Shown: positions 5,775 to 57,882 of the stretch, piece by piece
Layout: each line of letters starts with the position of its first letter
How positions within the stretch are numbered: position 1 is the first letter of the stretch
DNA from: an uncultured Candidatus Saccharibacteria bacterium
Lineage (GTDB): Bacteria > Patescibacteriota > Minisyncoccia > Phycocordibacterales > UBA918
Assembly: GCA_964402035.1 (NCBI GenBank)
Contig: CAYOAM010000002.1
Coordinates: 178,964 to 242,963, forward strand
Direction of reading: 5' to 3'
DNA: 64,000 bases
Notes under the pieces: generated by a model
What the model saw: only the letters and a program-made list of their open reading frames with translations
The model's database searches: none
What the model was told of the DNA's origin: nothing
Translations under genes and position numbers: made by a program

Positions 5775-6401
5775 CTATTCGAGGATGCCGTTCAGATCGA
5801 CATCGTATAGTATCCGTTCCTGTGCCGTCTTATAGTTAATCAATTCCTTAGCATCAAACCATACAGCGATCTCACGCTCTGCTTCGTCAGGTGACTCTGA
5901 CTGATGAACGAGATTGCGCACTGCGCGATTCTGAAATGTAGAGTGTCCATAGGAATCAACGGTGAGATCTCCACGAATCGTACCAACATCGGACGTCGCA
6001 GGCTCAGTTGAACCAACAATCTTTGATACAATCGCCACAGCTTGATTGCCTTCAACCACCATAGCAAGCACAGGGCCAGCGGTCATAAACGCAACGATAG
6101 TGTCTATAATTCCTCGGCCATATGCCATAGCATCTTTCTTTATAGGGAGACCTTGCGCCGTCAAATCTTCGATAATACGATTGCCTTTCTTAAGAAACCA
6201 CGCATCGTCTTTGTTGTAGTGTACAAGACATTGCTCGCGATTGGGTACCAAAAACTTAAAACCGACAAATTTGAGACCGGTTCGCTCAAAACGGGCAATA
6301 ATCTCGCCAATTAGCCCACGCTGTACGCCGTCAGGTTTGATGATGACCAAAGTGCGCTCTTGGTGCATACCGGGCTTTCGCATTGAAATTTCATTACTCA
6401 T
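5775..6401 (-). CDS. ndk: Nucleoside diphosphate kinase
   Basis: RTLVIIKPDGVQRGLIGEIIARFERTGLKFVGFKF is the canonical NDK N-terminal region. The active-site His region is present. Confidence 0.85.
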   Translation of the reverse strand: MSNEISMRKPGMHQERTLVIIKPDGVQRGLIGEIIARFERTGLKFVGFKFLVPNREQCLVHYNKDDAWFLKKGNRIIEDLTAQGLPIKKDAMAYGRGIIDTIVAFMTAGPVLAMVVEGNQAVAIVSKIVGSTEPATSDVGTIRGDLTVDSYGHSTFQNRAVRNLVHQSESPDEAEREIAVWFDAKELINYKTAQERILYDVDLNGILE

Positions 6402-6467
6402 ACCTATATTATAGCATATTTAAGGCTTTATTCAAGCCATCTTTGTTCACTATTGATATTGCAATAC

Positions 6468-6543
6468 AAAAACAGCACCCTGCACATTTTTAAACCCAGA
6501 CCTACCCCCGACCTTTTTAAAAATGTGCAGGGTGCTGTTTTTG
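6468..6543. terminator. Long perfect hairpin (about 24-bp stem) with A/T runs on both sides; bidirectional terminator-like element downstream of map
   Basis: aaaaacagcaccctgcacattttta ... taaaaatgtgcagggtgctgttttt, with a 24-nt loop aacccagacctacccccgaccttt. Confidence 0.6.
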
Positions 6544-6548
6544 GTCAC

Positions 6549-7325
6549 CTAAGCCTGCTCGGTCACAATCTCGGGGCCTGCTTCGGTGATCAGCACAGTG
6601 TGTTCAAAATGAGCACTACGAGAACCATCCTTGGTACGCACGGTATAACCATCCTCTTCATCAAACACCACCTGCTTTTTGCCCGCATTGAGCATCGGCT
6701 CAATTGCAAATGCCATCCCCACTTCAATTTTTTCCCCTGTCCCAGGGCGTCCAAAATTGGGTACAAATGGCGCTTCATGGACTGCGTAGCCCACGCCGTG
6801 CCCGCAGAGCTCCTCCACAATACCAAAACCAAATGGCTTTACGTAGGATTCGATCGCATGACCAATATCGCCCACCGTATTACCTGCACGCGCCGCAGCA
6901 ATGCCACGCGCGCGCGCTTCTTTTGTAACGTCAATAAGTTTTTGTGAAAGTGCATCAATCTTCCCTACCGCTACGGTCCGAGCTGAATCAACGATCATAT
7001 CGTCAACAGCGATCGAGACATCAATACCGATGATGTCTCCTTCTTTGAGGATGATTGGGCTTTCGTTTGGTATGCCATGCACTATGACGTCGTTGACCGA
7101 TGTGCAGATCGCTGCAGGATAGGGGCGTTCGGCAAACTCCGGATGATACCCAAGAAGAATCGGCTCTGCGCCATACTGTTCGATCAGGCGCATCGCTTCA
7201 TCATCAAGATCTTGGGTCGAAACGCCGGGTGCCACCATACGTTCGAGATCAGTAAGGACGCGCGCAAGAACCTTCCCCGCTTTGCGCATTTTTTCAAAAT
7301 CATCTTTCGTTTTTTTCTGAATCAT
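6549..7325 (-). CDS. map: Methionine aminopeptidase type I
   Basis: 258 aa. The metal-binding D/D/H/E/E pattern is present (e.g. GHGVGYAVHEAP). Position after adk matches the conserved secY-adk-map order. Confidence 0.85.
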   Translation of the reverse strand: MIQKKTKDDFEKMRKAGKVLARVLTDLERMVAPGVSTQDLDDEAMRLIEQYGAEPILLGYHPEFAERPYPAAICTSVNDVIVHGIPNESPIILKEGDIIGIDVSIAVDDMIVDSARTVAVGKIDALSQKLIDVTKEARARGIAAARAGNTVGDIGHAIESYVKPFGFGIVEELCGHGVGYAVHEAPFVPNFGRPGTGEKIEVGMAFAIEPMLNAGKKQVVFDEEDGYTVRTKDGSRSAHFEHTVLITEAGPEIVTEQA

Positions 7326-7347
7326 TTTAAATTTTCCCTTCGATGTC

Positions 7348-7421
7348 GACGACGGGCACGGATGTGTTTTTAAAAAGGTCGGGGGTAGGGCTGGGTTTTA
7401 AAAACACATCCGTGCCCGTCG
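7348..7421. terminator. Second long hairpin, between adk and map. Its loop is the reverse complement of the loop at 6492-6516.
   Basis: cgacgggcacggatgtgttttt...aaaaacacatccgtgcccgtcg. Loop aggtcgggggtagggctggg matches the other loop in inverse orientation with 1 mismatch. Confidence 0.55.
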
Positions 7422-7457
7422 TTTGGTGATGTACTTTCGTGCGCAAAGTGCGCAGTT

Positions 7458-8057
7458 TCAATCTCCAAGCTCCAACCCCTCAATGATCGCATCTGTCACT
7501 GCATCAATAGACAACGTACCATCGATCGTAAGCAACGTCGTTTCCGTTTGCTTCTTATAATACTCAACCACCGGCAAGGTCTTTTCGTAATACCAAGAAA
7601 GTCGAGCCTCGATCGAAGCTGGCGTATCGTCACTGCGCGCACGTGTCCGCATGCGGTCGCGCACAACTTCTTCGGGTGTATCAAGAAAGACGATTGTCCG
7701 TTTTGTACGACCATAGAAACTAAGTGCTGTTTCAAGCACAATCGCCTCTTCAACGGTACGTGGAAAACCATCAATTAAGAGGTGGCACTCTGTATCGAGC
7801 TGCTGCACCATATCGTAGCCCCATAGTGCGACGGAAAGAAACAATGGCTGCAATTCACCAGTGTCCAAGGTCGCACCAATGTGCTCGGCGGTAAAGCCCG
7901 TTTCAATCTGAGCAAAAGAACGAAAACGTCGACCACTTTGGATATCAACGACCCGGCCTGCAGGGTCAAGCTTCCGCAGATACGCGTCGATACGCGCAAT
8001 CTGCGTCCCCTTACCACTCCCCTGTGGTCCGATAAAGATAATCGTCTGTGGCTCCAT
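7458..8057 (-). CDS. adk: Adenylate kinase
   Basis: IIFIGPQGSGKGTQ P-loop and an LID region are present. It follows secY. Confidence 0.85.
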   Translation of the reverse strand: MEPQTIIFIGPQGSGKGTQIARIDAYLRKLDPAGRVVDIQSGRRFRSFAQIETGFTAEHIGATLDTGELQPLFLSVALWGYDMVQQLDTECHLLIDGFPRTVEEAIVLETALSFYGRTKRTIVFLDTPEEVVRDRMRTRARSDDTPASIEARLSWYYEKTLPVVEYYKKQTETTLLTIDGTLSIDAVTDAIIEGLELGD

Positions 8058-8163: not shown

Positions 8164-8730
8164 ATGAAAAAAGAAATAATCACCATCGCAGGAAAGCCAG
8201 GCAGTGGTAAATCAACCACAGCTAATATTTTAGCTCAGCTCCTTGGATACGAACGATACTCAGCAGGAAGTTTTTTGCGAACCATTGCAGAAGACCGTGG
8301 AATCAGCATTGAAGAAGCGAGTCGACTTGCACTTGAGGATGCATCGATCGACAAAGACATGGATGCTCGAGTTACATCGATTGGAACCACACAATCAAAA
8401 ATGGTTATAGACGGGCGGCTTGCATTCCACTTTATACCCCAGTCATTTAAAGTGTACCTCGAGCTCGATTTAAAAGTCGCAGCAGAAAGAATCTTTAGAG
8501 AAGACGAAATGGCGAGAATTGCTCGTGGCGAGATGGCAAAGACCGAGACTGCGCTCTATGAAGACATCAGCGCCCGCTTCCAAAGCGAACAGCTGCGGTA
8601 CCAAGGCCTGTATCACATAAACCCCCACCAACACTCATATTTTGATCTTGTGCTCGATACTACCGATCAATCCCCCGATGATGTTGCGCAACAGATTGTA
8701 AACGCGTACCAAAAATGGCTTGAAGCCTAA
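8164..8730 (+). CDS. cmk: Cytidylate (CMP) kinase, archaeal-type short form
   Basis: MKKEIITIAGKPGSGKSTTANILAQLLGYERYSAGSFLRTIAEDRGISIEE closely follows the archaeal CMK pattern (ITISGPPGSGKTT...G...SAG..FR..A...G.S.EE). The ORF-track start at 8113 is probably upstream of the true ATG at 8164. Confidence 0.6.
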   Translation: MKKEIITIAGKPGSGKSTTANILAQLLGYERYSAGSFLRTIAEDRGISIEEASRLALEDASIDKDMDARVTSIGTTQSKMVIDGRLAFHFIPQSFKVYLELDLKVAAERIFREDEMARIARGEMAKTETALYEDISARFQSEQLRYQGLYHINPHQHSYFDLVLDTTDQSPDDVAQQIVNAYQKWLEA

Positions 8731-8740
8731 TCTTTAAAAA

Positions 8741-8776
8741 GAAAAGCCCGCACCTAGGGTGCGGGCTTTTCTTTTT
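8741..8776. terminator. Bidirectional rho-independent terminator shared by cmk (+) and secY (-)
   Basis: aaaagcccgcacctagggtgcgggcttttcttttt. Confidence 0.75.
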
Positions 8777-10046
8777 AATACTCGCGGAGAGAGATTTGCG
8801 AGTCGATTCTACGAATGAGATCAAGGACTACCGAGACAACAATCAATAGTGCGGTGCCTCCAATCGCCAGTGTGGTAAAGCCCGTAAGGTTCTGCATAAT
8901 GAGTGGCAATACGGCTATAGTTCCTAAGAAGAATGCTCCCACAAACGTGATCCGAGTAATCACCTTTCCTAGATACTCTGAGGTATGTGCGCCTGGTCGT
9001 ACGCCAGGAACAAAGGCTCCATTGCGCTGTAGGTTTTTAGAAATCGAATCTGGATCAAACGTAACGGCAGTGTAGAAATACGTAAAAAGAAATACGAGCA
9101 CAAAATACGCGCCAGCATACAGCCACGGGCTCTGAAAAAATGAGAGAACCACTTCTGAAGCCTTCGCTATCCATGCGCTGTTAAAGCGAGAAAGCATGTT
9201 GAGAATCATCTGAGGAAACAGCAAAATTGAGAGTGCAAAAATGATTGGAATCACGCCAGCTTGATTGAGGCGTAGTGGAAGATAGGTAGACACCCCACCA
9301 TATACTTTGTTGCCACGCACACGCTTTGCGTAGGTCACCGGCACAGGACGCTCTGCTTCTGTTACGACAACCACCCCGTAAATAATGACGACGGCGACAG
9401 CGAGAAACGCCAAGTAGAGCGGAATCTGTGACTGATCAAATGTAAAGAACGCCTGGCTAACTGCGGCAGGCATACTCGCTACAATACCTCCGAAAATGAT
9501 GAGTGAGGTCCCGTTGCCTATACCAAACTCAGTCACCAGTTCTCCAATCCACATAAGCAGCATTGATCCGGCAACCACGACGACCAAGTTTGCAACGAAG
9601 TCTTGTACTGAAAGTACTCCCAACACACCTTGATTCTGAAGGAGCATCAAAAAACTAAAACCTTGGAGGATAGCAAGTGGTAGTGTCAAAAGACGACTGA
9701 TCTGCGTAAATTTCTGGCGGCCTGTCTCACCCTCTTCGGTATAGAGTGCTTTGAGTCGTGGCGACATCACGGTCAAAAGCTGCATGATGATCGATGCTGT
9801 AATATAGGGACCAACGCCAAGCATCACGAGCGAGAGATTTGAAAGCCCACCACCCGAGAAAATATTCAAAAGTCCAAAAAACTGATTATTCGAAAAAAAC
9901 TCTGCAAGTCGCAAGGGATCAACTCCCGGTGTCGGAATTGCAGCAAGCGCACGAAAAAGTACTAATGCCCCACAGACAAACAGTATTCGATTGCGCAATG
10001 TTGCGTCTCCGAAGATCAGCTTAACTTTTTGTATGAATGCATCCAT
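8775..10046 (-). CDS. secY: Preprotein translocase subunit SecY
   Basis: 423 aa with 10 TM helices. The conserved N-terminal region is LRNRILFVCGALVLFRALAAIPTPGV. Confidence 0.9.
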   Translation of the reverse strand: MDAFIQKVKLIFGDATLRNRILFVCGALVLFRALAAIPTPGVDPLRLAEFFSNNQFFGLLNIFSGGGLSNLSLVMLGVGPYITASIIMQLLTVMSPRLKALYTEEGETGRQKFTQISRLLTLPLAILQGFSFLMLLQNQGVLGVLSVQDFVANLVVVVAGSMLLMWIGELVTEFGIGNGTSLIIFGGIVASMPAAVSQAFFTFDQSQIPLYLAFLAVAVVIIYGVVVVTEAERPVPVTYAKRVRGNKVYGGVSTYLPLRLNQAGVIPIIFALSILLFPQMILNMLSRFNSAWIAKASEVVLSFFQSPWLYAGAYFVLVFLFTYFYTAVTFDPDSISKNLQRNGAFVPGVRPGAHTSEYLGKVITRITFVGAFFLGTIAVLPLIMQNLTGFTTLAIGGTALLIVVSVVLDLIRRIDSQISLREY

Positions 10047-10507: not shown

Positions 10508-11113
10508 TTATGAACGCTTTGCGCGAAGTGTTTTCAGAGCCTCAATCGCTGCACGAGCATTGTTGAGTTTATTCTTGCTGCGTGAGAATACTTTTGCTGT
10601 CACATCCTTCACGCCCGCAAGCTCGAGTACGGTACGAACAGAACTACCCGCTACAAGTCCCCTGCCTGGAGATGGCATGATCATGATCTGACTTGCTGCA
10701 TATTTTGTAGAAACATCGTGCGGAATACGGCTGTGGGCATCCATCACTACCTGGATCATATTCTTTTTTGCGGCACGAAACGCTTTTTCAATAGCGAGCT
10801 GTGTATCCCCTGCCTTCCCAATACCCACACCTACCTTCCCTGCCTTATTACCAGCAACCATCGCAACACTAAAATTGAAACGACGACCTCCCGCCATCAC
10901 ACGCGTCACGCGACGGATACTGATGATTTTTTGTGCAAACTCAGGACGCGCACGCTCTTCTCTGCGACCGCCTGTGCGGCGCTGCGGACGGCGCTGCGTA
11001 TTTTTTCGATCCGTATGACGTACCGACGCAGAGCGTTCAGCCGCAGGTGTAGCCGCCTCGCCCGTAGCGGGAGTCGTTGCAACATCATTTTCTGTTTGTA
11101 TATCTTCAACCAT
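10508..11113 (-). CDS. rpsE: 30S ribosomal protein S5 with an N-terminal basic extension
   Basis: RVTRVMAGGRRFNFSVAMVAGNKAGKVGVGIGKAGD is the S5 core. No L30 gene lies between S5 and L15. Confidence 0.9.
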   Translation of the reverse strand: MVEDIQTENDVATTPATGEAATPAAERSASVRHTDRKNTQRRPQRRTGGRREERARPEFAQKIISIRRVTRVMAGGRRFNFSVAMVAGNKAGKVGVGIGKAGDTQLAIEKAFRAAKKNMIQVVMDAHSRIPHDVSTKYAASQIMIMPSPGRGLVAGSSVRTVLELAGVKDVTAKVFSRSKNKLNNARAAIEALKTLRAKRS

Positions 11114-11136
11114 AGTATTCTATATATGAAAATTCA

Positions 11137-11487
11137 TTAAAATTGCAAACCTTCCGCGCGTGCGCCATCTGCAAGCGCCGCTATGATGCCTTGATACGGA
11201 AAACCTCCACGATCAAACACAATATGTGTGAGGCCAAGCTTCTTTGCGTCTTGTGCTACTTTACGCCCTACTTCGGTTGCGCGTAGTGTGGTTGTTTTTC
11301 CGGTCACTTTTCGTGAATCCGAGGCTGCAATAGTCACACCTGACTCATCATTGATGAGCTGCGCATATACATAGCGATTTGAACGAAATACTGCAAGACG
11401 AGGTCGTACTGCGGTACCGGTAACACGCGCACGCACACGGGCATGACGACGTACTCGAGAAGCTGTTTTTTTAGCTGATTTATTCAT
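11137..11487 (-). CDS. rplR: 50S ribosomal protein L18
   Basis: 116 aa, basic N-terminus. Position between L6 and S5. Confidence 0.85.
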   Translation of the reverse strand: MNKSAKKTASRVRRHARVRARVTGTAVRPRLAVFRSNRYVYAQLINDESGVTIAASDSRKVTGKTTTLRATEVGRKVAQDAKKLGLTHIVFDRGGFPYQGIIAALADGARAEGLQF

Positions 11488-14269: not shown

Positions 14270-14461
14270 TTATATTGTTTTTGTTCGAATACGTGCCTCA
14301 GTCAAGATACGAGCAACCGTCTTGCGCACTTTGCGCATAGAGTGAGTATCACGCACCGAGCTACCGGCCGTACCAAAGCGAAGTACACGAAGTTCCTCTC
14401 GTTTCTCCAGAAGAAACGTCGTGAGATCAGCATCATTTTTTTCCTTAATTTCTTTCATCAT
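14270..14461 (-). CDS. rpmC: 50S ribosomal protein L29
   Basis: 63 aa helical protein between L16 and S17. Confidence 0.8.
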   Translation of the reverse strand: MMKEIKEKNDADLTTFLLEKREELRVLRFGTAGSSVRDTHSMRKVRKTVARILTEARIRTKTI

Positions 14462-47177: not shown

Positions 47178-47663
47178 TTACAAGATTTTATTTTTGATGA
47201 TCATCTAATGATCGGCTGAGAACGTGGTACGGTAGCTCCCCGCGCTACCGTACCCCCTCCGACAAATCACCAGATGAGAACATTCAATTTTTGGTACGCT
47301 ACGTGGTTAAAAACCGCTCGCATACAAATTCATATCATATAAGCTTCTACTCCGCAAAACATTTTCAAAAACTAACGCAATGTTCGCATTCCGCGCCACA
47401 TAACAGTCTCTGTTATACAACTCAAAATACTGCGATGTGCAATATTCCTTGCCTTTCAAAGTTTTTCTTTGAAAGCCTTGGCAGTTTAGCATGACACTAA
47501 ACATCACTTATGTAACGCACACAAGCGTACTGCGATGTGCAATATTCCTTACAGGAACACATTCTATTAGTACACCTCGGCTCCACGCATTTCGGCGCTT
47601 CCACCTGGTGCCTATCAACCTGATAATCTCTCAGGGAATTTAATGATTCTTAATCTTAGAGCT

Positions 47664-47696
<33 letters not shown>

Positions 47697-47840
47697 ATTC
47701 CGAACATAGCTACAGGGCGGTGCCGTTGGCACGACAGCCCTCAGACCAGAGGTTCGTTCATTCCGGTCCTCTCGTACTAGGAACAAATCTCCTCAAGAAT
47801 CGACGCCTGCAGTAGATAGGAGACCAACCTGTCTCACGCA

Positions 47841-48105
47841 TCTTGGCTCTCACATTACTGTGAGGATTGGACTATATCTTCTTCCAAACAATTTGGAAGG
47901 TTGACGTTTAGTCTCTACGGGTGCTTATGGGCTTCCCTCGGTATTACCCTTTAACCAAAAAATAAATGGCTAAATTGGGTTCTTCCGATATAGTCAACTT
48001 TACTACAGAACATTGCTGTTCTGTGCCGCCGTACTGATGTCTTTTCGAATATAAGTGGTCACATATATTCTCCCCGGGTTTAGATTGGTTCAGGCAACGA
48101 ATTAC
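47841..48105 (-). mobile_element. 23S intron at the GAACG|GTGAGACAG junction (about 265 bp, no ORF)
   Basis: Exons are colinear with E. coli 23S near 2590-2600. The intron ends in G. Its 3' domain is homologous to the 16S introns. Confidence 0.65.
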
Positions 48106-48779
48106 TTCGCAACCTGAACGGTCTAAACCCAGCTCACGTAACTTTTTAATTGGCGAACAGCCAAACCCTTGGAAGCTGCTCCACCTCCAGGATAAGTTGA
48201 GCCGACATCGAGGTGCCGAACCGTGCCGTCGCTATGGACGCTTGGGCACGACTAGCCTGTTATCCCCAGGGTAACTTTTATCGGGTAATCTCCGGCCGCA
48301 TCTAACGCGTACCATCGGTTCACTATGCTCCGCTTTCGCGTCTGTTCGGCATCCACGCCTCACAGTCAAGCTGGCTTGTGCCATTACACTATCGACACGG
48401 TTTCCATTCGCGTCTAGCCAACCTTGAGACCCCTCCGTTACTTTTTAGGAGGGTAGCGCCCCACTAAAACTGCCTATCACGCACTGTCTCAGTGTAATTT
48501 TTTTACACTGGTTAGAAACTGCCCCAATAAAGAGTGGTATTTCACTGACGAGTCCACATCTCCCAAAAGAAATGCTTCAACCTCTCCCACCTATTCTACG
48601 CATCACAAGAACAGCCTCAATACGAAATTACAGTAAAGCTCCTGGGGTCTTTTCGTCTAACTGCAGGTACCCGGCATCTTCACCGGGATTGTATTTTCAC
48701 CGAGCAAGCCCTTGAGACAGTTCCCCAGTCATTACGCCATTCGTGCACGTCGGAACTTACCCGACAAGGAATTGCGCTC

Positions 48780-49000
48780 TTCTATTCCTCAAGAAGGACT
48801 CTGTCTTCATCTCAGAAACATTCTGAGCGCGTGACATATGGTCTCTTGTTGGTCACGTATTGACTAAGCGTACATTACTGTACGCAAGGTAGCTTTTTGA
48901 ATGGTCACCATGCGTATCTCGCACATGGGACACTGCGTCCATTTACCAATCCATAATCGTTCCAGTCATTTGATGCACTTCATTTCTGAAACGCACCAAA
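48780..49000 (-). mobile_element. 23S insertion/intron at the AGCGCAATTCCTTGTCGGG region (E. coli ~1920-1935), about 220 bp, no ORF
   Basis: The exon sequence caaggaattgcgct is followed by the insertion, then accttagaacgattatagttatcgc. Confidence 0.55.
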
Positions 49001-49751
49001 CCTTAGAACGATTATAGTTATCGCTGACATTGACCGGGGCTTACATAGCCCAGCAATACAGATTGCTCCATATCACCTTCCATGTTTGACCTTCCGGCAT
49101 TGGTCAGGCGTCACCCCCTATACATCCTCTTGCGAGTTCGCAGGGAGCTGTGTTTTTGGTAAACAGTTGCCAGGGAATCTTTCACTGCGGCCTCTCACCT
49201 TGCGGTGAGGAGGCAGGCCTTATCCCGAAGTTACGGCCGCTTTTTTGCCGAGTTCCTTAAGGGCCTCTCACTCGTTCGCCTTGGTCTACTCGACCTGATC
49301 ACCTGTGTCGGTTTGCGGTACGGAACCGTTGTGTATAACGTAGAAGATTTTCTAGGAAGCGCGCTCACTACTTTGACGTACCCGAAAGCACATCTACAGG
49401 CGACGCTCGGATCCGACATTAAAGTCAGAAGTGCGGATTTACCTACACCTCACCCTCACGCTACCAGCGACAATCCAATAAGTCGCAGTAACTACAGCAC
49501 TCCGTCTCTCCATAGAAACACAACCGTGTCATGGAATATTAACCATGTGTCCATCGCCTCCCCCATTCGGGATCGGCTTAGGCCCGACTAACCCTTGGCT
49601 GATCACCATCGCCAAGGAAACCTTGATCTTTCGGCGGGAGGGGCTCTCACCCTCCTTGCGGTTACTTGTGCCGGCATTCTCACTTCTGTACGCTCCACCG
49701 CGGCTCCCGCCTTGGCTTCATCGCAGAACAGAACGCTCTCCTACCACTCGT

Positions 49752-50130
49752 GGACTTCGTTGAAGATCGGATCAATGATCTCTACTGATCCGAAAAAATA
49801 TTTTGTGCTGTACCCCTGACAGGCATCGAACCTGCATCGTGCTTCTTATCTGGGTGTCTAATCCAGATGCACGGTTTTTCAAATTAAACTACAGGGGACT
49901 CACACATTAAAGAACAAGTCGGCGGACGATGTGTCGCGAACCGCTCGGTTGGAAGTTGGATTGCTCCGCAGTCCACCCGAAATGGGACACACCGTCCGCC
50001 AGGAGACGAGAAACGTTATTCAGGGGATTACCGCGGCTGCTGATACCCTGAACGTCTTCTCGCTCCTACAGAGGTTCTTCGCTGGCGTACAGCCAAACTT
50101 TGACGAACCTCTGTTTCAATATTTTTGTAC
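49752..50130 (-). mobile_element. 23S insertion (about 380 bp) replacing the helix-45-equivalent hairpin. It is bounded by a 12-bp inverted repeat, cgaagtccacga/tcgtggacttcg.
   Basis: It contains CAGCAGCCGCGGTAAT (16S 530-loop identity) at 50027-50042. GGATTAGACACCCAGATA (16S 790-loop-like) lies at 49858-49874, next to a tRNA-like T-arm GCAGGTTCGATGCCTGT. Confidence 0.6.
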
Positions 50131-51821
50131 AATCCTCAACGAAGTCCACGAATCCGCAGTTTCGGTACTATGCTTGAGCCCCGATCATCTTCGGCGCAGA
50201 AACTCTCGACGAGTGAGCTGTTACGCTATCTTTAAAGGATGGCTGCTTCTAAGCCAACCTCCTCGCTGTCAATGAATTTCCACTTCCTCAAGACGCACTG
50301 AGCATAGATTTAGGGACCTTAACTGGCGATCTGGGCTGTTCCCCTTTTGACTGATGGAGCTTATCCCCCATAGTCTAACTGCCGCGCTATAACTCTCGGT
50401 ATTCGGAGTTTGATAGGTCCCACGAGATTTCTCCCTGTTGAGACCTTCCAGTGCTCTACCCCCAAGAGGACCACGCGACGCCAACCCAAAAGCTGTTTCG
50501 GAGAGAACCAGCTATTACGGAATTCGATTAGCTTTTCACTCCATACCACAAATCATCCGATGGTTTTGCACGGCCAACCGGTTCGGGCCTCCCCACATCT
50601 TTCGATGTGGTTCACCCTGTTCATGGCAAGCTCATCCCGCTTCGGGTCGTACTCTATCCCTATATTCGCGCTATTCACACTCGCTTTCGCTCTGCCTCCG
50701 GGGGTTCACCCCTTAGACGAAGGAATACAGTACACTCGCCGGCTCATTCTTCAATAGGCACGCGGTCACCAGGCTTGCGCCCAGCTCCCACTCTTTGTAA
50801 GCATACGGTTTCAGATCTATTTCACTGTCCTCACCGGACTGTTTTTCACCTTTCCCTCACGGTACTCGTTCACTATCGGTCTCTTGGAATATTTAGCCTT
50901 AGGAGTTAGTGCTCCCAGATTCATTCGAGCTATTCATGTCTCGAACTACTCAGGAACGGCAACAAGAAAGTGGTAGATAATTTCGCATACGGGACTATTA
51001 CCCACTGGGGTCACTCTTTCCAGAGTGTTCCGCTATCATCACCATTTATTTCTTTCCTCAACTAAATGACGTCGCCGCCCTACAACCCCGACCATGTAAA
51101 CACGATCGGTTTGGGCTTCTCCCGTTTCGCTCGCCGCTACTAAGGGAATTGCAAGTGTCTTCTTCCTGACCATAATGGCGTCGCGGTATTGCTACCGCGA
51201 CATTCGATCAGAAAGAAAACACCCTTTATTGCTTTCTTTTCCTCCGGGTACTGAGATGTTTCACTTCCCCGGGTACGCGACCAACAACAAGTGTTGGACC
51301 TCTATCGTAGATAGAGAGGTTTCCCCATTCGGACATTCTCGGGTCGCAGATTGCTTGGCATCTAACCGAGACTTATCGCAGCCATGCTACGTCCTTCATC
51401 GCTTCACAAGAGCCTAGGCATCCACCGTACGCTCTTCATTCCTGTAAGGAAGACCACACACCGTGTTGCAACATAGAATTTGTGACAATATGAAATTTGT
51501 TTTTCAAAATTTTGTTTCCTCAATGTTCACTCGTTCGGAAAAGAAAATGCAAGCACTTTCTTTTCCTCACTCGCTCCATTGAAAAGGAATACTACACATC
51601 TCCTGTCTTACAGATGGTTTTTCTTCCATTACCTAAATGCTAAACACCGCTGTTTAGTTTTCAATTATGTTGTTTCTCGCATGCAGCACATAGTTTTGGG
51701 AAAAGACCCGCAAAAACAAACATGCATTACATGCGATCCGTATGTGCAACAAACACACATACGATTTGCTCGTATACACCTACATGATATGAAATTGTCA
51801 ACGAACGGGTGTTTCCCTGAG

Positions 51822-57540: not shown

Positions 57541-57882
57541 TTATTCTGCAATCAAAAGACCTGCTTTTTTGAGTGTTTCTAAAACTGTCACGCGATTTGC
57601 TCTTTGTATCAGACGCACATCGCGCACGCTCCAATCAAGAGAACGCAATTGATCCGCCAGTATGGCCCCCTGTATGTTTTTCTCCGCAACAAGCACTTCA
57701 AATGGGTACCCTTTTACTTTTGAAGTAATAGGACACATGAGCGCAAGGTGTGTTTTCTTGTTATACGATTTTGGAGATAGTACAAGCGCCGGACGAGTTT
57801 TTGATTGTTCATGACCACGTGTTGGGTTTAGATCCACCCACACTACATCTCCCCTATCGGGTATATACATTTTTTTTACCAT
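57541..57882 (-). CDS. mazF: Type II toxin, PemK/MazF family endoribonuclease
   Basis: YIPDRGDVVWVDLNPTRGHEQSKTRPALVLSPKSYNKKTHLALMCPITS. Confidence 0.8.
   Translation of the reverse strand: MVKKMYIPDRGDVVWVDLNPTRGHEQSKTRPALVLSPKSYNKKTHLALMCPITSKVKGYPFEVLVAEKNIQGAILADQLRSLDWSVRDVRLIQRANRVTVLETLKKAGLLIAE

Follow-up and report, generated by a model that had tools for sequence, protein, structure and literature searches.

Miniature inverted-repeat transposable elements (MITEs), among them the Correia/CREE, ERIC, RUP and BOX families, are small, non-autonomous intergenic repeats with a patchy distribution; they form long RNA hairpins and can supply terminators or RNase III sites. The insertion sequences (IS) IS1397 and ISKpn1 insert in the loops of repetitive extragenic palindromic (REP) sequences. 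At the origins of rolling-circle plasmids and circular Rep-encoding single-stranded (CRESS) DNA viruses, the loop is conserved for protein nicking or binding, and the stems vary between relatives. REP and REPIN elements, which go with RAYT transposases of the Y1/HUH type, are described as short extragenic palindromes in two reports (PMC3333891, PMC3733652), and a third, on IS110/IS1111 elements in REPs, offers a precedent for insertion into extragenic palindromes (PMC1525189). TIGR-Tas systems of parasitic bacteria and phages have stem units that are variable but consistently palindromic, arranged in tandem beside a Nop-domain gene (PMC12045711). In REPs and MITEs the stem is conserved and the loop is free. 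Here we describe a family in which this relationship is reversed. Two of its members, hairpins A and B, bracket map (methionyl aminopeptidase) in a 64,000-nt stretch of contig CAYOAM010000002.1, hereafter called the window. A and B are copies of a dispersed, low-copy repeat family found in Kaiserbacteria-like genomes (Parcubacteria, candidate phyla radiation). We lean towards reading the family as mobile or selfish DNA in hairpin form, with the apical module (the loop and the innermost base pairs of the stem) as its heritable unit.

Both window hairpins are very stable (Table 1). Their folding energies range from -43 to -52 kcal/mol on either strand (z-scores of -8.8 to -10.6), and none of 200 shuffled sequences was as stable. 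Within the window, a core search allowing up to three mismatches matched GGTCGGGGGTAGGTCTGGG (6495-6513, minus strand) in A, GGTCGGGGGTAGGGCTGGG (7377-7395, plus strand) in B and nothing else, where chance predicts none; for the 19-nt core, 0 of 100 shuffles gave a match. Alignment of A with B delimits a common block of 37 nt (6487-6523 versus 7367-7403; 95% complementary, 843 nt apart). This block takes in the loop-proximal 8-9 bp of each stem (T5A3-4/T3-4A5), such that the two stems are unrelated only in their outer 18-20 bp. Relative to A, the B module has an A-to-C substitution at core position 6 and a single T/A difference in its tract, and the longest unbroken identity between the inverted cores is 23 nt. 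The initial annotation had recognized both hairpins and a common loop in inverse orientation with one mismatch, as the core matches and the complementarity search confirm. It had also proposed unrelated stems of ~22-24 bp and a core of ~28 nt. The sharing holds, but the stems are longer and alike in their inner part, and the block extends beyond that core. Both hairpins are identical in assemblies from samples ERZ3430527 and SRR7369924 and hence do not represent an assembly artefact.

The core recurs outside the window. Searching a single genome of each species for GGTCGGGGGTAGGNCTGGG returned 16 matches, about the number expected by chance on our own rough estimate (~17 in 596 Gb, given 18 specified bases). 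A single metagenome-assembled genome (MAG) of Ca. Kaiserbacteria, JAYVPP01, holds two of these, and both exact cores form the loops of long hairpins with different stems; the other 14 showed no hairpin. A metagenome scan yielded 28 loci, among which L020, L035/L039 and L040 have the same hairpin design and the remaining 23 have no hairpin. Variant copies close to the first ones (L013b, L015b and L040b) emerged from looser searches and from a covariance model built from nine copies, and three further copies were found in L066, a relative of the JAYVPP01 contig. The family thus comprises 13 distinct copies, which come from the window genome and from no fewer than four further genomes or metagenome contigs of Kaiserbacteria-like bacteria. 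Covariance-model searches of 302, 43 and 35 kb of DNA revealed nothing beyond these 13. It had been suggested from the window alone that A and B belong to a small repeat family with a conserved core and variable arms. The genome and metagenome scans, which could have found the core nowhere else, instead show it capping long hairpins, whose stems differ, in other genomes of the Kaiserbacteria-like group.

The family matches nothing described in the sources we searched. Rfam gave no family at the gathering threshold, even when searched to an E value of 10 (best of the generic hairpin matches below it, K10_TLS, 32 bits versus a threshold of 43), and gave nothing at the hairpins of the other loci, so a known RNA family was rejected. 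BLAST against phages and plasmids returned weak partial matches only (E values of 2 to 7) and a scan of viral contigs gave 0 matches, on which grounds a phage or plasmid origin was also set aside. We also asked whether the two core halves might be separated parts of one full-length element, but half-cores were found only inside hairpins. In the literature, we found no description of a hairpin element with a conserved tip and a free stem.

Conservation falls off sharply with distance from the loop. Read with the C-rich strand on top, each copy (66-78 nt, with a stem of 20-28 bp) consists of an outer arm, T4-5, AAA, GAA or GY, the loop, the complementary inner arm, and the complementary outer arm. 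The inner stem, made up of the T4-5 tract plus AAA, GAA or GY, is A/T-rich and 7-9 bp long; the outer stem is copy-specific and GC-rich, and often ends in A and T tracts. Eight copies carry the loop CCCAGACCTACCCCCGACCT (~20 nt), which includes two tandem CCCNGACCT units at a spacing of 11 nt. The variant loops are CCCAGACCTACCCCCAACCT, TCCAGACCTACCCCCAACCT, CCCAGACCTACCCC-GACCT, CGGAGACCATACCCCCAAACCT, CGGAGACCATACTCCCGCCT and CCCGAGCCCATACCCCCAACCT. Common to the loops is the heart AGNCC(A)TACYCCC...CCT, and the family as a whole can be written as T4-5 N2-3 C[CG][CG]AGNCC(A)TACYCCCNNCCT N2-3 A4-5 with paired flanks. Across the 13 copies, mean pairwise identity is 87% for the loop (a figure inflated by the way some copies were found, see below; lowest pair, 70%), 63% for the inner stem (positions 1-8, counting outwards from the loop) and 31%, about random, for the outer stem (positions 9-20). 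Canonical pairs occupy 97% of stem positions, with all four Watson-Crick types represented at most outer positions. This gradient points to the apical module as the heritable unit. Comparison of arms and flanks between copies showed no significant similarity; a few weak pairs (p of 0.005-0.02 over 36 comparisons) were unconvincing as residual arm homology. The idea of a genome-specific inner stem was dropped, as L066 and the JAYVPP01 MAG each have two inner-stem variants. A small peptide encoded across the loop was rejected as well, since copies with different inner-stem variants do not preserve the reading frame.

Copies are found in every kind of intergenic context and in both orientations. 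Nine lie in co-directional spacers, with the sense transcript carrying either the C-rich loop (B, L013a, L035, L040a and L040b) or the G-rich loop (A, L013b, L020 and L066b). Two lie in convergent spacers (L015a and L066c) and two in divergent ones (L015b and L066a). With such a distribution, the family as a whole cannot have a strand-specific RNA function. Most copies begin 6-47 nt past a stop codon, and the neighbouring genes are of unrelated kinds (map, a metallo-beta-lactamase (MBL) hydrolase gene, glycosyltransferase genes, ftsI-murF). Copies also cluster. The 81 kb available for the window genome (the window plus contigs L059 and L060) contain exactly two, 880 bp apart; elsewhere, pairs are spaced by 775 bp (L040) or 100 bp (L013), and L066 has three copies within 5.7 kb. 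At three loci a single gene stands between two copies, namely map, the MBL hydrolase gene (L040) and a 161-aa open reading frame (ORF) in L066 that is missing from L061. The pairs are inverted in the window and in L066 but direct in L040. L066 also contains a relic, a 29-nt direct repeat (1089-1117 versus 1798-1826, 90% identity) lying 709 nt upstream of L066b. The repeat holds the left arm, the inner stem and the first 3 loop nt of L066b, and the 161-aa ORF, which has no Pfam match, sits between relic and copy.

Related genomes differ in the presence of hairpins at orthologous sites. Neither window hairpin is present at its site in any of four relatives (L047, L048, L050 and L051), whose contigs we reached through the map protein. 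There, adk and map overlap by 4 nt (L048 and L050), abut (L047), or stand 46 nt apart (L051). In L047 and L050, the map stop codon runs directly into a conserved ndk promoter block, ggcttgaataaagcc...tataat (21 nt, 95% identity between the window and L047). Compared with these two, the window spacer between map and ndk has ~115 nt extra, hairpin A included. The situation is similar at L040, where both copies flanking the MBL-fold hydrolase gene are absent in three relatives (hydrolase 87-89% identical). Thus, hairpins are missing at four of four tested sites in relatives with proteins 77-89% identical. As a separate matter, L048 has an extra 178-aa ORF without a Pfam match between map and ndk (10894-11430; also L049, 5261-5797), so this spacer appears to take insertions repeatedly in the lineage. 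The L040 locus also contains a 145-nt block conserved in L057 (4741-4885 versus 8411-8554, 85.5% identity), within a ~1-kb ORF-free gap between an S1-domain gene and the MBL hydrolase gene. This block may be an unannotated non-coding RNA; no Rfam family was found for it at the gathering threshold.

The patchy presence of the hairpins, the identical cores in different genomes, the mixed orientation, the indifference to intergenic context, the local clustering and the relic all favour a mobile or selfish element. On this reading, the apical module would be the unit that is copied, arriving at new intergenic sites on a short evolutionary timescale. The stem might be acquired in either of two ways. 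The module could land where an existing palindrome or terminator exposes a single-stranded tip; ordinary terminators are indeed what about half of the copies resemble in their outer stems, and IS1397/ISKpn1 and IS110-type elements set precedents for palindrome targeting. Alternatively, a palindrome could be generated around the module. Opposite loop orientations at orthologous sites could reflect independent insertions, or a loop that flipped when strands switched between the arms. A bolder version, which we consider doubtful, is that the ~36-nt module represents a new kind of mobile DNA that inserts in the single-stranded tip of a cruciform or hairpin or else builds a perfect palindrome, so that each copy is born with its own stem and its loop may later flip by strand switching. 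If so, no known mobile element that targets structure would be smaller, and the module would provide ultra-small genomes with new terminators and with breaks in their operons.

Several observations weigh against mobility. Neither route to a stem fits hairpin B comfortably, since three of the four relatives have no adk-map spacer at all and a pre-existing palindrome there is not parsimonious. The invariance of the loop is overstated, because 7 of the 13 copies came from the exact-core search; those found without that requirement are 1 to ~5 positions off the consensus. Copy number is low (about two exact cores in a whole MAG and, for the window genome, two copies in 81 kb), unlike that of proliferating MITEs or REPs. 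Among the 38 scanned window ORFs and the genes with Pfam listings in L059 and L060 (these take in the 17 kb beyond the window), none showed a transposase, integrase, invertase or recombinase domain. There is no sign of a target-site duplication: the borders lack direct repeats and flank similarity does not exceed that of shuffled controls. No empty site with the same stem was found, and thus movement is inferred. Finally, the same two intergenic regions are occupied by family hairpins in both L066 and L061, which share a flanking kinase-like protein at 75% identity. In both orthologous pairs the outer stems differ and the loop orientation is opposite; L015b pairs best with L066b, L066a being an additional copy in that spacer. 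Occupancy of the same sites suggests that copies have been inherited vertically over a long time while keeping their loop, as a functional element would, the alternative being repeated insertion at hot spots. The orthologous copies both keep perfect or near-perfect stems, which weakens the idea that hairpins are born perfect and then decay.

Set against known mobile repeats, the family shows a mixture of likeness and difference. As with REPs and REPINs, the hairpins lie just after genes, in both orientations and often in nearby pairs, and such elements can terminate or stabilize mRNA. But in REPs and REPINs it is the stem and a 5' GTAG/CGTC tag at its foot that are conserved, with a free loop, whereas this family conserves the loop and leaves the stem free. 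GTAG occurs only inside the loop (GGGGGTAGG), and the feet of the stems differ in every copy. Nor are stems conserved within a genome, as REP stems are, given the near-random outer stems of the family and the unrelated outer stems of A and B. Copy number is very low by comparison, and no RAYT was evident, in that the 38 scanned window ORFs and the 17 kb of adjoining gene calls (81 kb in total) contain no transposase domain. The presence/absence polymorphism at orthologous sites resembles that of MITEs. However, MITEs have conserved terminal inverted repeats and target-site duplications, whereas copies of this family share only the innermost 7-9 bp and diverge over the outer 14-20 bp. Palindrome-targeting insertion sequences are full elements of 1-1.5 kb encoding a transposase; here the mobile unit would be ~36 nt and non-coding. 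Rolling-circle and CRESS-DNA origins occur once per replicon beside Rep, with a 9-13-nt loop containing a nonanucleotide, in contrast to several chromosomal copies with no Rep and no such motif. Whatever recognizes or copies this family must read the hairpin tip rather than the arms, and a module that targets or creates palindromes would imply a new transposition logic. The hosts are candidate phyla radiation bacteria, with minimal genomes in which mobile DNA is considered scarce and non-coding elements have received hardly any study. There, the short conserved core offers a handy lineage marker.

A possible but rather unlikely alternative to mobility is that the loop and inner stem constitute a putative binding site of the host, held under selection atop ordinary hairpins or terminators while the outer stems drift. 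The partner might recognize the two tandem 11-nt units on duplex DNA, or the single-stranded loops of a cruciform or lagging-strand hairpin. The 11-nt periodicity of CCCNGACCT fits two sites on one face of the helix, the loop is conserved far above the stems, and the two intergenic regions occupied in both L061 and L066, with stems kept at or near perfection, are what a functional site would predict. Moreover, the ordinary terminators between secY and cmk have unrelated stems in orthologous positions at 81-86% SecY identity; hence, variable stems alone do not require mobility. On the other hand, hairpins are absent from the same sites in all seven relatives examined for the window and L040, and a total of only two copies in 81 kb, beside genes of unrelated kinds, in both orientations and in all intergenic contexts, is hard to reconcile with a host site. 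At one orthologous site (L015b versus L066a, aligned by eye) loop identity drops to ~65-70%, and no candidate binding protein was identified.

Improbable, in our estimate, is the idea that the hairpins are sites of recombination, either borders of cassettes akin to attC or, as the initial annotation had suggested, the inverted repeats of an invertible map segment. It draws on the single gene found between two copies at three loci, on the arrangement of L066 (hairpin, extra ORF, hairpin) where L061 has one hairpin, and on the resemblance to attC, which likewise brackets single genes and is recognized by its structure with sequence mostly free. An invertible switch would also call for flanking inverted repeats, and the 37-nt block provides them. 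Yet attC sites carry R'' and R' boxes at the base of the stem and extrahelical bases, and form arrays of one orientation adjoining intI; in this family the apex is conserved, stems are perfect and orientation is mixed. The boxes (RYYYAAC/GTTRRRY) are absent from the ends of the window hairpins, which are CAAAAAC...GTTTTTG for A and ACGACGG...CCGTCGT for B, paired at 28 of 28 and 27 of 27 positions with no bulges. The nearest named homologues of the map product are from Candidatus Kaiserbacteria (~65% identity), and its identity to the four relatives (77-84%) tracks that of its neighbours (SecY 81-86%, Ndk 74-81%). We therefore take map to be vertically inherited, and an imported cassette was rejected. 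Both map and the MBL hydrolase gene occupy their ancestral positions in relatives without hairpins. Six contigs carry map. In the two assemblies compared, each from a different sample, adk, map and ndk are arranged and oriented alike, and the alternative orientation was not seen in either. With no integrase or invertase in 81 kb, direct orientation of the L040 pair, and an unbroken identity of just 23 nt between A and B, the invertible cassette finds little footing.

We judge it very improbable that the hairpins act as guide RNAs, with variable stems as acquired 'spacers' on a constant loop scaffold, whether in the manner of TIGR or as precursors of short hairpin RNAs. A constant loop with variable stems does recall a guide library, and the palindromic stems of TIGR-Tas in parasitic bacteria (PMC12045711) make the comparison natural. 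But TIGR-Tas arrays are tandem, whereas these copies are dispersed around a constant loop of only 20 nt, and no Nop-domain gene is present among the scanned ORFs; the architecture does not fit, and TIGR-Tas stem-loop units were rejected. The arms are fully self-complementary, and so not free to pair with a target, and they do not recur in the window. Viral contigs gave 0 matches to an 18-nt arm of B and 33 to a 16-nt arm of A, the latter about our rough estimate for chance. As for two ordinary terminators with loops alike by coincidence, the outer A-tract, GC stem and T-tract of A are those of an ordinary bidirectional terminator, but the near-identity of the 37-nt blocks, the shuffles of the core, the recurrence of this loop atop hairpins of other genomes and the 3-8-nt loops of ordinary terminators here refute chance resemblance, to which we give negligible weight.

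Locally, the two hairpins appear to play different roles. Hairpin A begins 6 nt past the map stop codon, upstream of the ndk promoter, and has A5 and T5 tracts at its outer ends. On its sense strand, ...GGGUGCUG is followed by UUUUUGUAUUG; an A-tract flanks the opposite side, and the ndk promoter comes next downstream. Given U-tracts on both sides, the promoter that follows and an outer stem like those of ordinary bidirectional terminators in these genomes, A is, judging from its sequence, probably the intrinsic terminator, active in both directions, at the end of the ribosomal-protein-secY-adk-map operon. Hairpin B starts 35 nt past the adk stop codon and is followed in the sense direction by CGACAUCG, with no U-tract. 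The 23 nt between B and the map start contain a ribosome-binding site (GAAGGGA) and no promoter, so map must be transcribed through the hairpin. B is thus probably read through as a very stable structure at the adk-map junction, where it may serve as a processing or stability site. Accordingly, the proposal that both hairpins terminate transcription in either direction stands for A, which combines a GC stem with an immediate U-tract, but fails for B, which lacks that combination. Perfect stems of 27-28 bp are long enough to be substrates of RNase III, so that processing or stabilization may occur. The loops of A and B, being inverted, are complementary within one transcript (predicted duplex, -40 kcal/mol). 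Such pairing is no general trait of the family, as other pairs are direct or lie on different transcripts. If the element inserted as we propose, it opened a structured gap of 132 nt in an otherwise overlapping adk-map junction and supplied the terminator of the operon, and would be an example of operon remodelling.

A scan with a terminator consensus called neither hairpin. Ordinary terminators in these genomes follow an A-tract, GC-stem, T-tract design, as do the outer stems of the family; their loops are 3-7 nt in the window and 3-8 nt across these genomes, compared with 20-21 nt in A and B. One of them, the bidirectional terminator after secY (window 8734-8778; L048 8710-8761; L050 6230-6263; L051 7857-7884), has a completely different stem in each relative. 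With SecY 81-86% identical, this suggests that terminator stems turn over fast in these genomes.

All genes around the hairpins lie on the minus strand (Table 1). The flanks in the two spacers do not recur elsewhere except for a 15-nt mini-palindrome, TGCGCAAAGTGCGCA. It occurs at 7440-7454, in the adk-map spacer just upstream of B, and again at 14323-14337, inverted, within the coding sequence of rpmC (L29). The recurrence is probably due to chance (E value of ~0.005-0.02).

Table 1. Coordinates of hairpins A and B, their apical modules, and the adjoining genes and spacers of the window.
Feature	Position	Strand	Description
Hairpin A	6467-6543		Perfect 28-bp stem, 21-nt loop; arms 6467-6494 and 6516-6543 (28 nt, 100% complementary, 21 nt between, by repeat search); model R1 score 81.5 bits
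Hairpin B	7349-7422		Perfect 27-bp stem, 20-nt loop; arms 7349-7375 and 7396-7422 (27 nt, 100% complementary, 20 nt between, by repeat search); model R1 score 71.9 bits
Apical module of A	6487-6523	plus	TTTTTAAA-CCCAGACCTACCCCCGACCT-TTTTAAAAA; C-rich on plus strand; common to B and the family
Apical module of B	7367-7403	minus	C-rich on minus strand; inverted relative to A
secY	8775-10046	minus	Upstream of adk-map
adk	7458-8057	minus	Adenylate kinase; upstream gene in the same transcription unit as map
adk-map spacer	7326-7457	minus	132 nt; lineage-specific; contains hairpin B
map	6549-7325	minus	Methionyl aminopeptidase (Peptidase_M24); bracketed by hairpins A and B
map-ndk spacer	6402-6548	minus	147 nt; contains hairpin A
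ndk promoter-like site	6408-6435	minus	TTGAAT, 16 nt, TATAAT; TG ahead of second hexamer
ndk	5775-6401	minus	Nucleoside diphosphate kinase; downstream of map, with its own promoter

Other features of the window were noted in passing. A tandem duplication at 29017-29322 has a unit of 171 nt (135 nt aligned at 86%), each unit ending in a terminator-like hairpin, AAAAAACCCGC-aca-GCGGGTCTTTT (29107-29131 and 29278-29302). The duplication directly adjoins tRNA-Ile (29308-29381, minus strand). The 16S gene (31846-34526, 2.7 kb) and the 23S gene (47546-51448, 3.9 kb) contain group I introns at 33768-34048 and 47848-48091, respectively, and an ORF for a LAGLIDADG homing endonuclease lies within the 16S gene (32462-33142, minus strand). 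The two rRNA genes are 13 kb apart, with protein-coding genes in between. The window derives from a candidate phyla radiation bacterium. The window also encodes a VirD4/TraG-like coupling protein (727-2640) and a protein with a type IV secretion pilin domain (30566-31273), as well as a MazF/PemK toxin (57541-57882) whose gene, according to the L060 gene calls, adjoins that of a MazE antitoxin.

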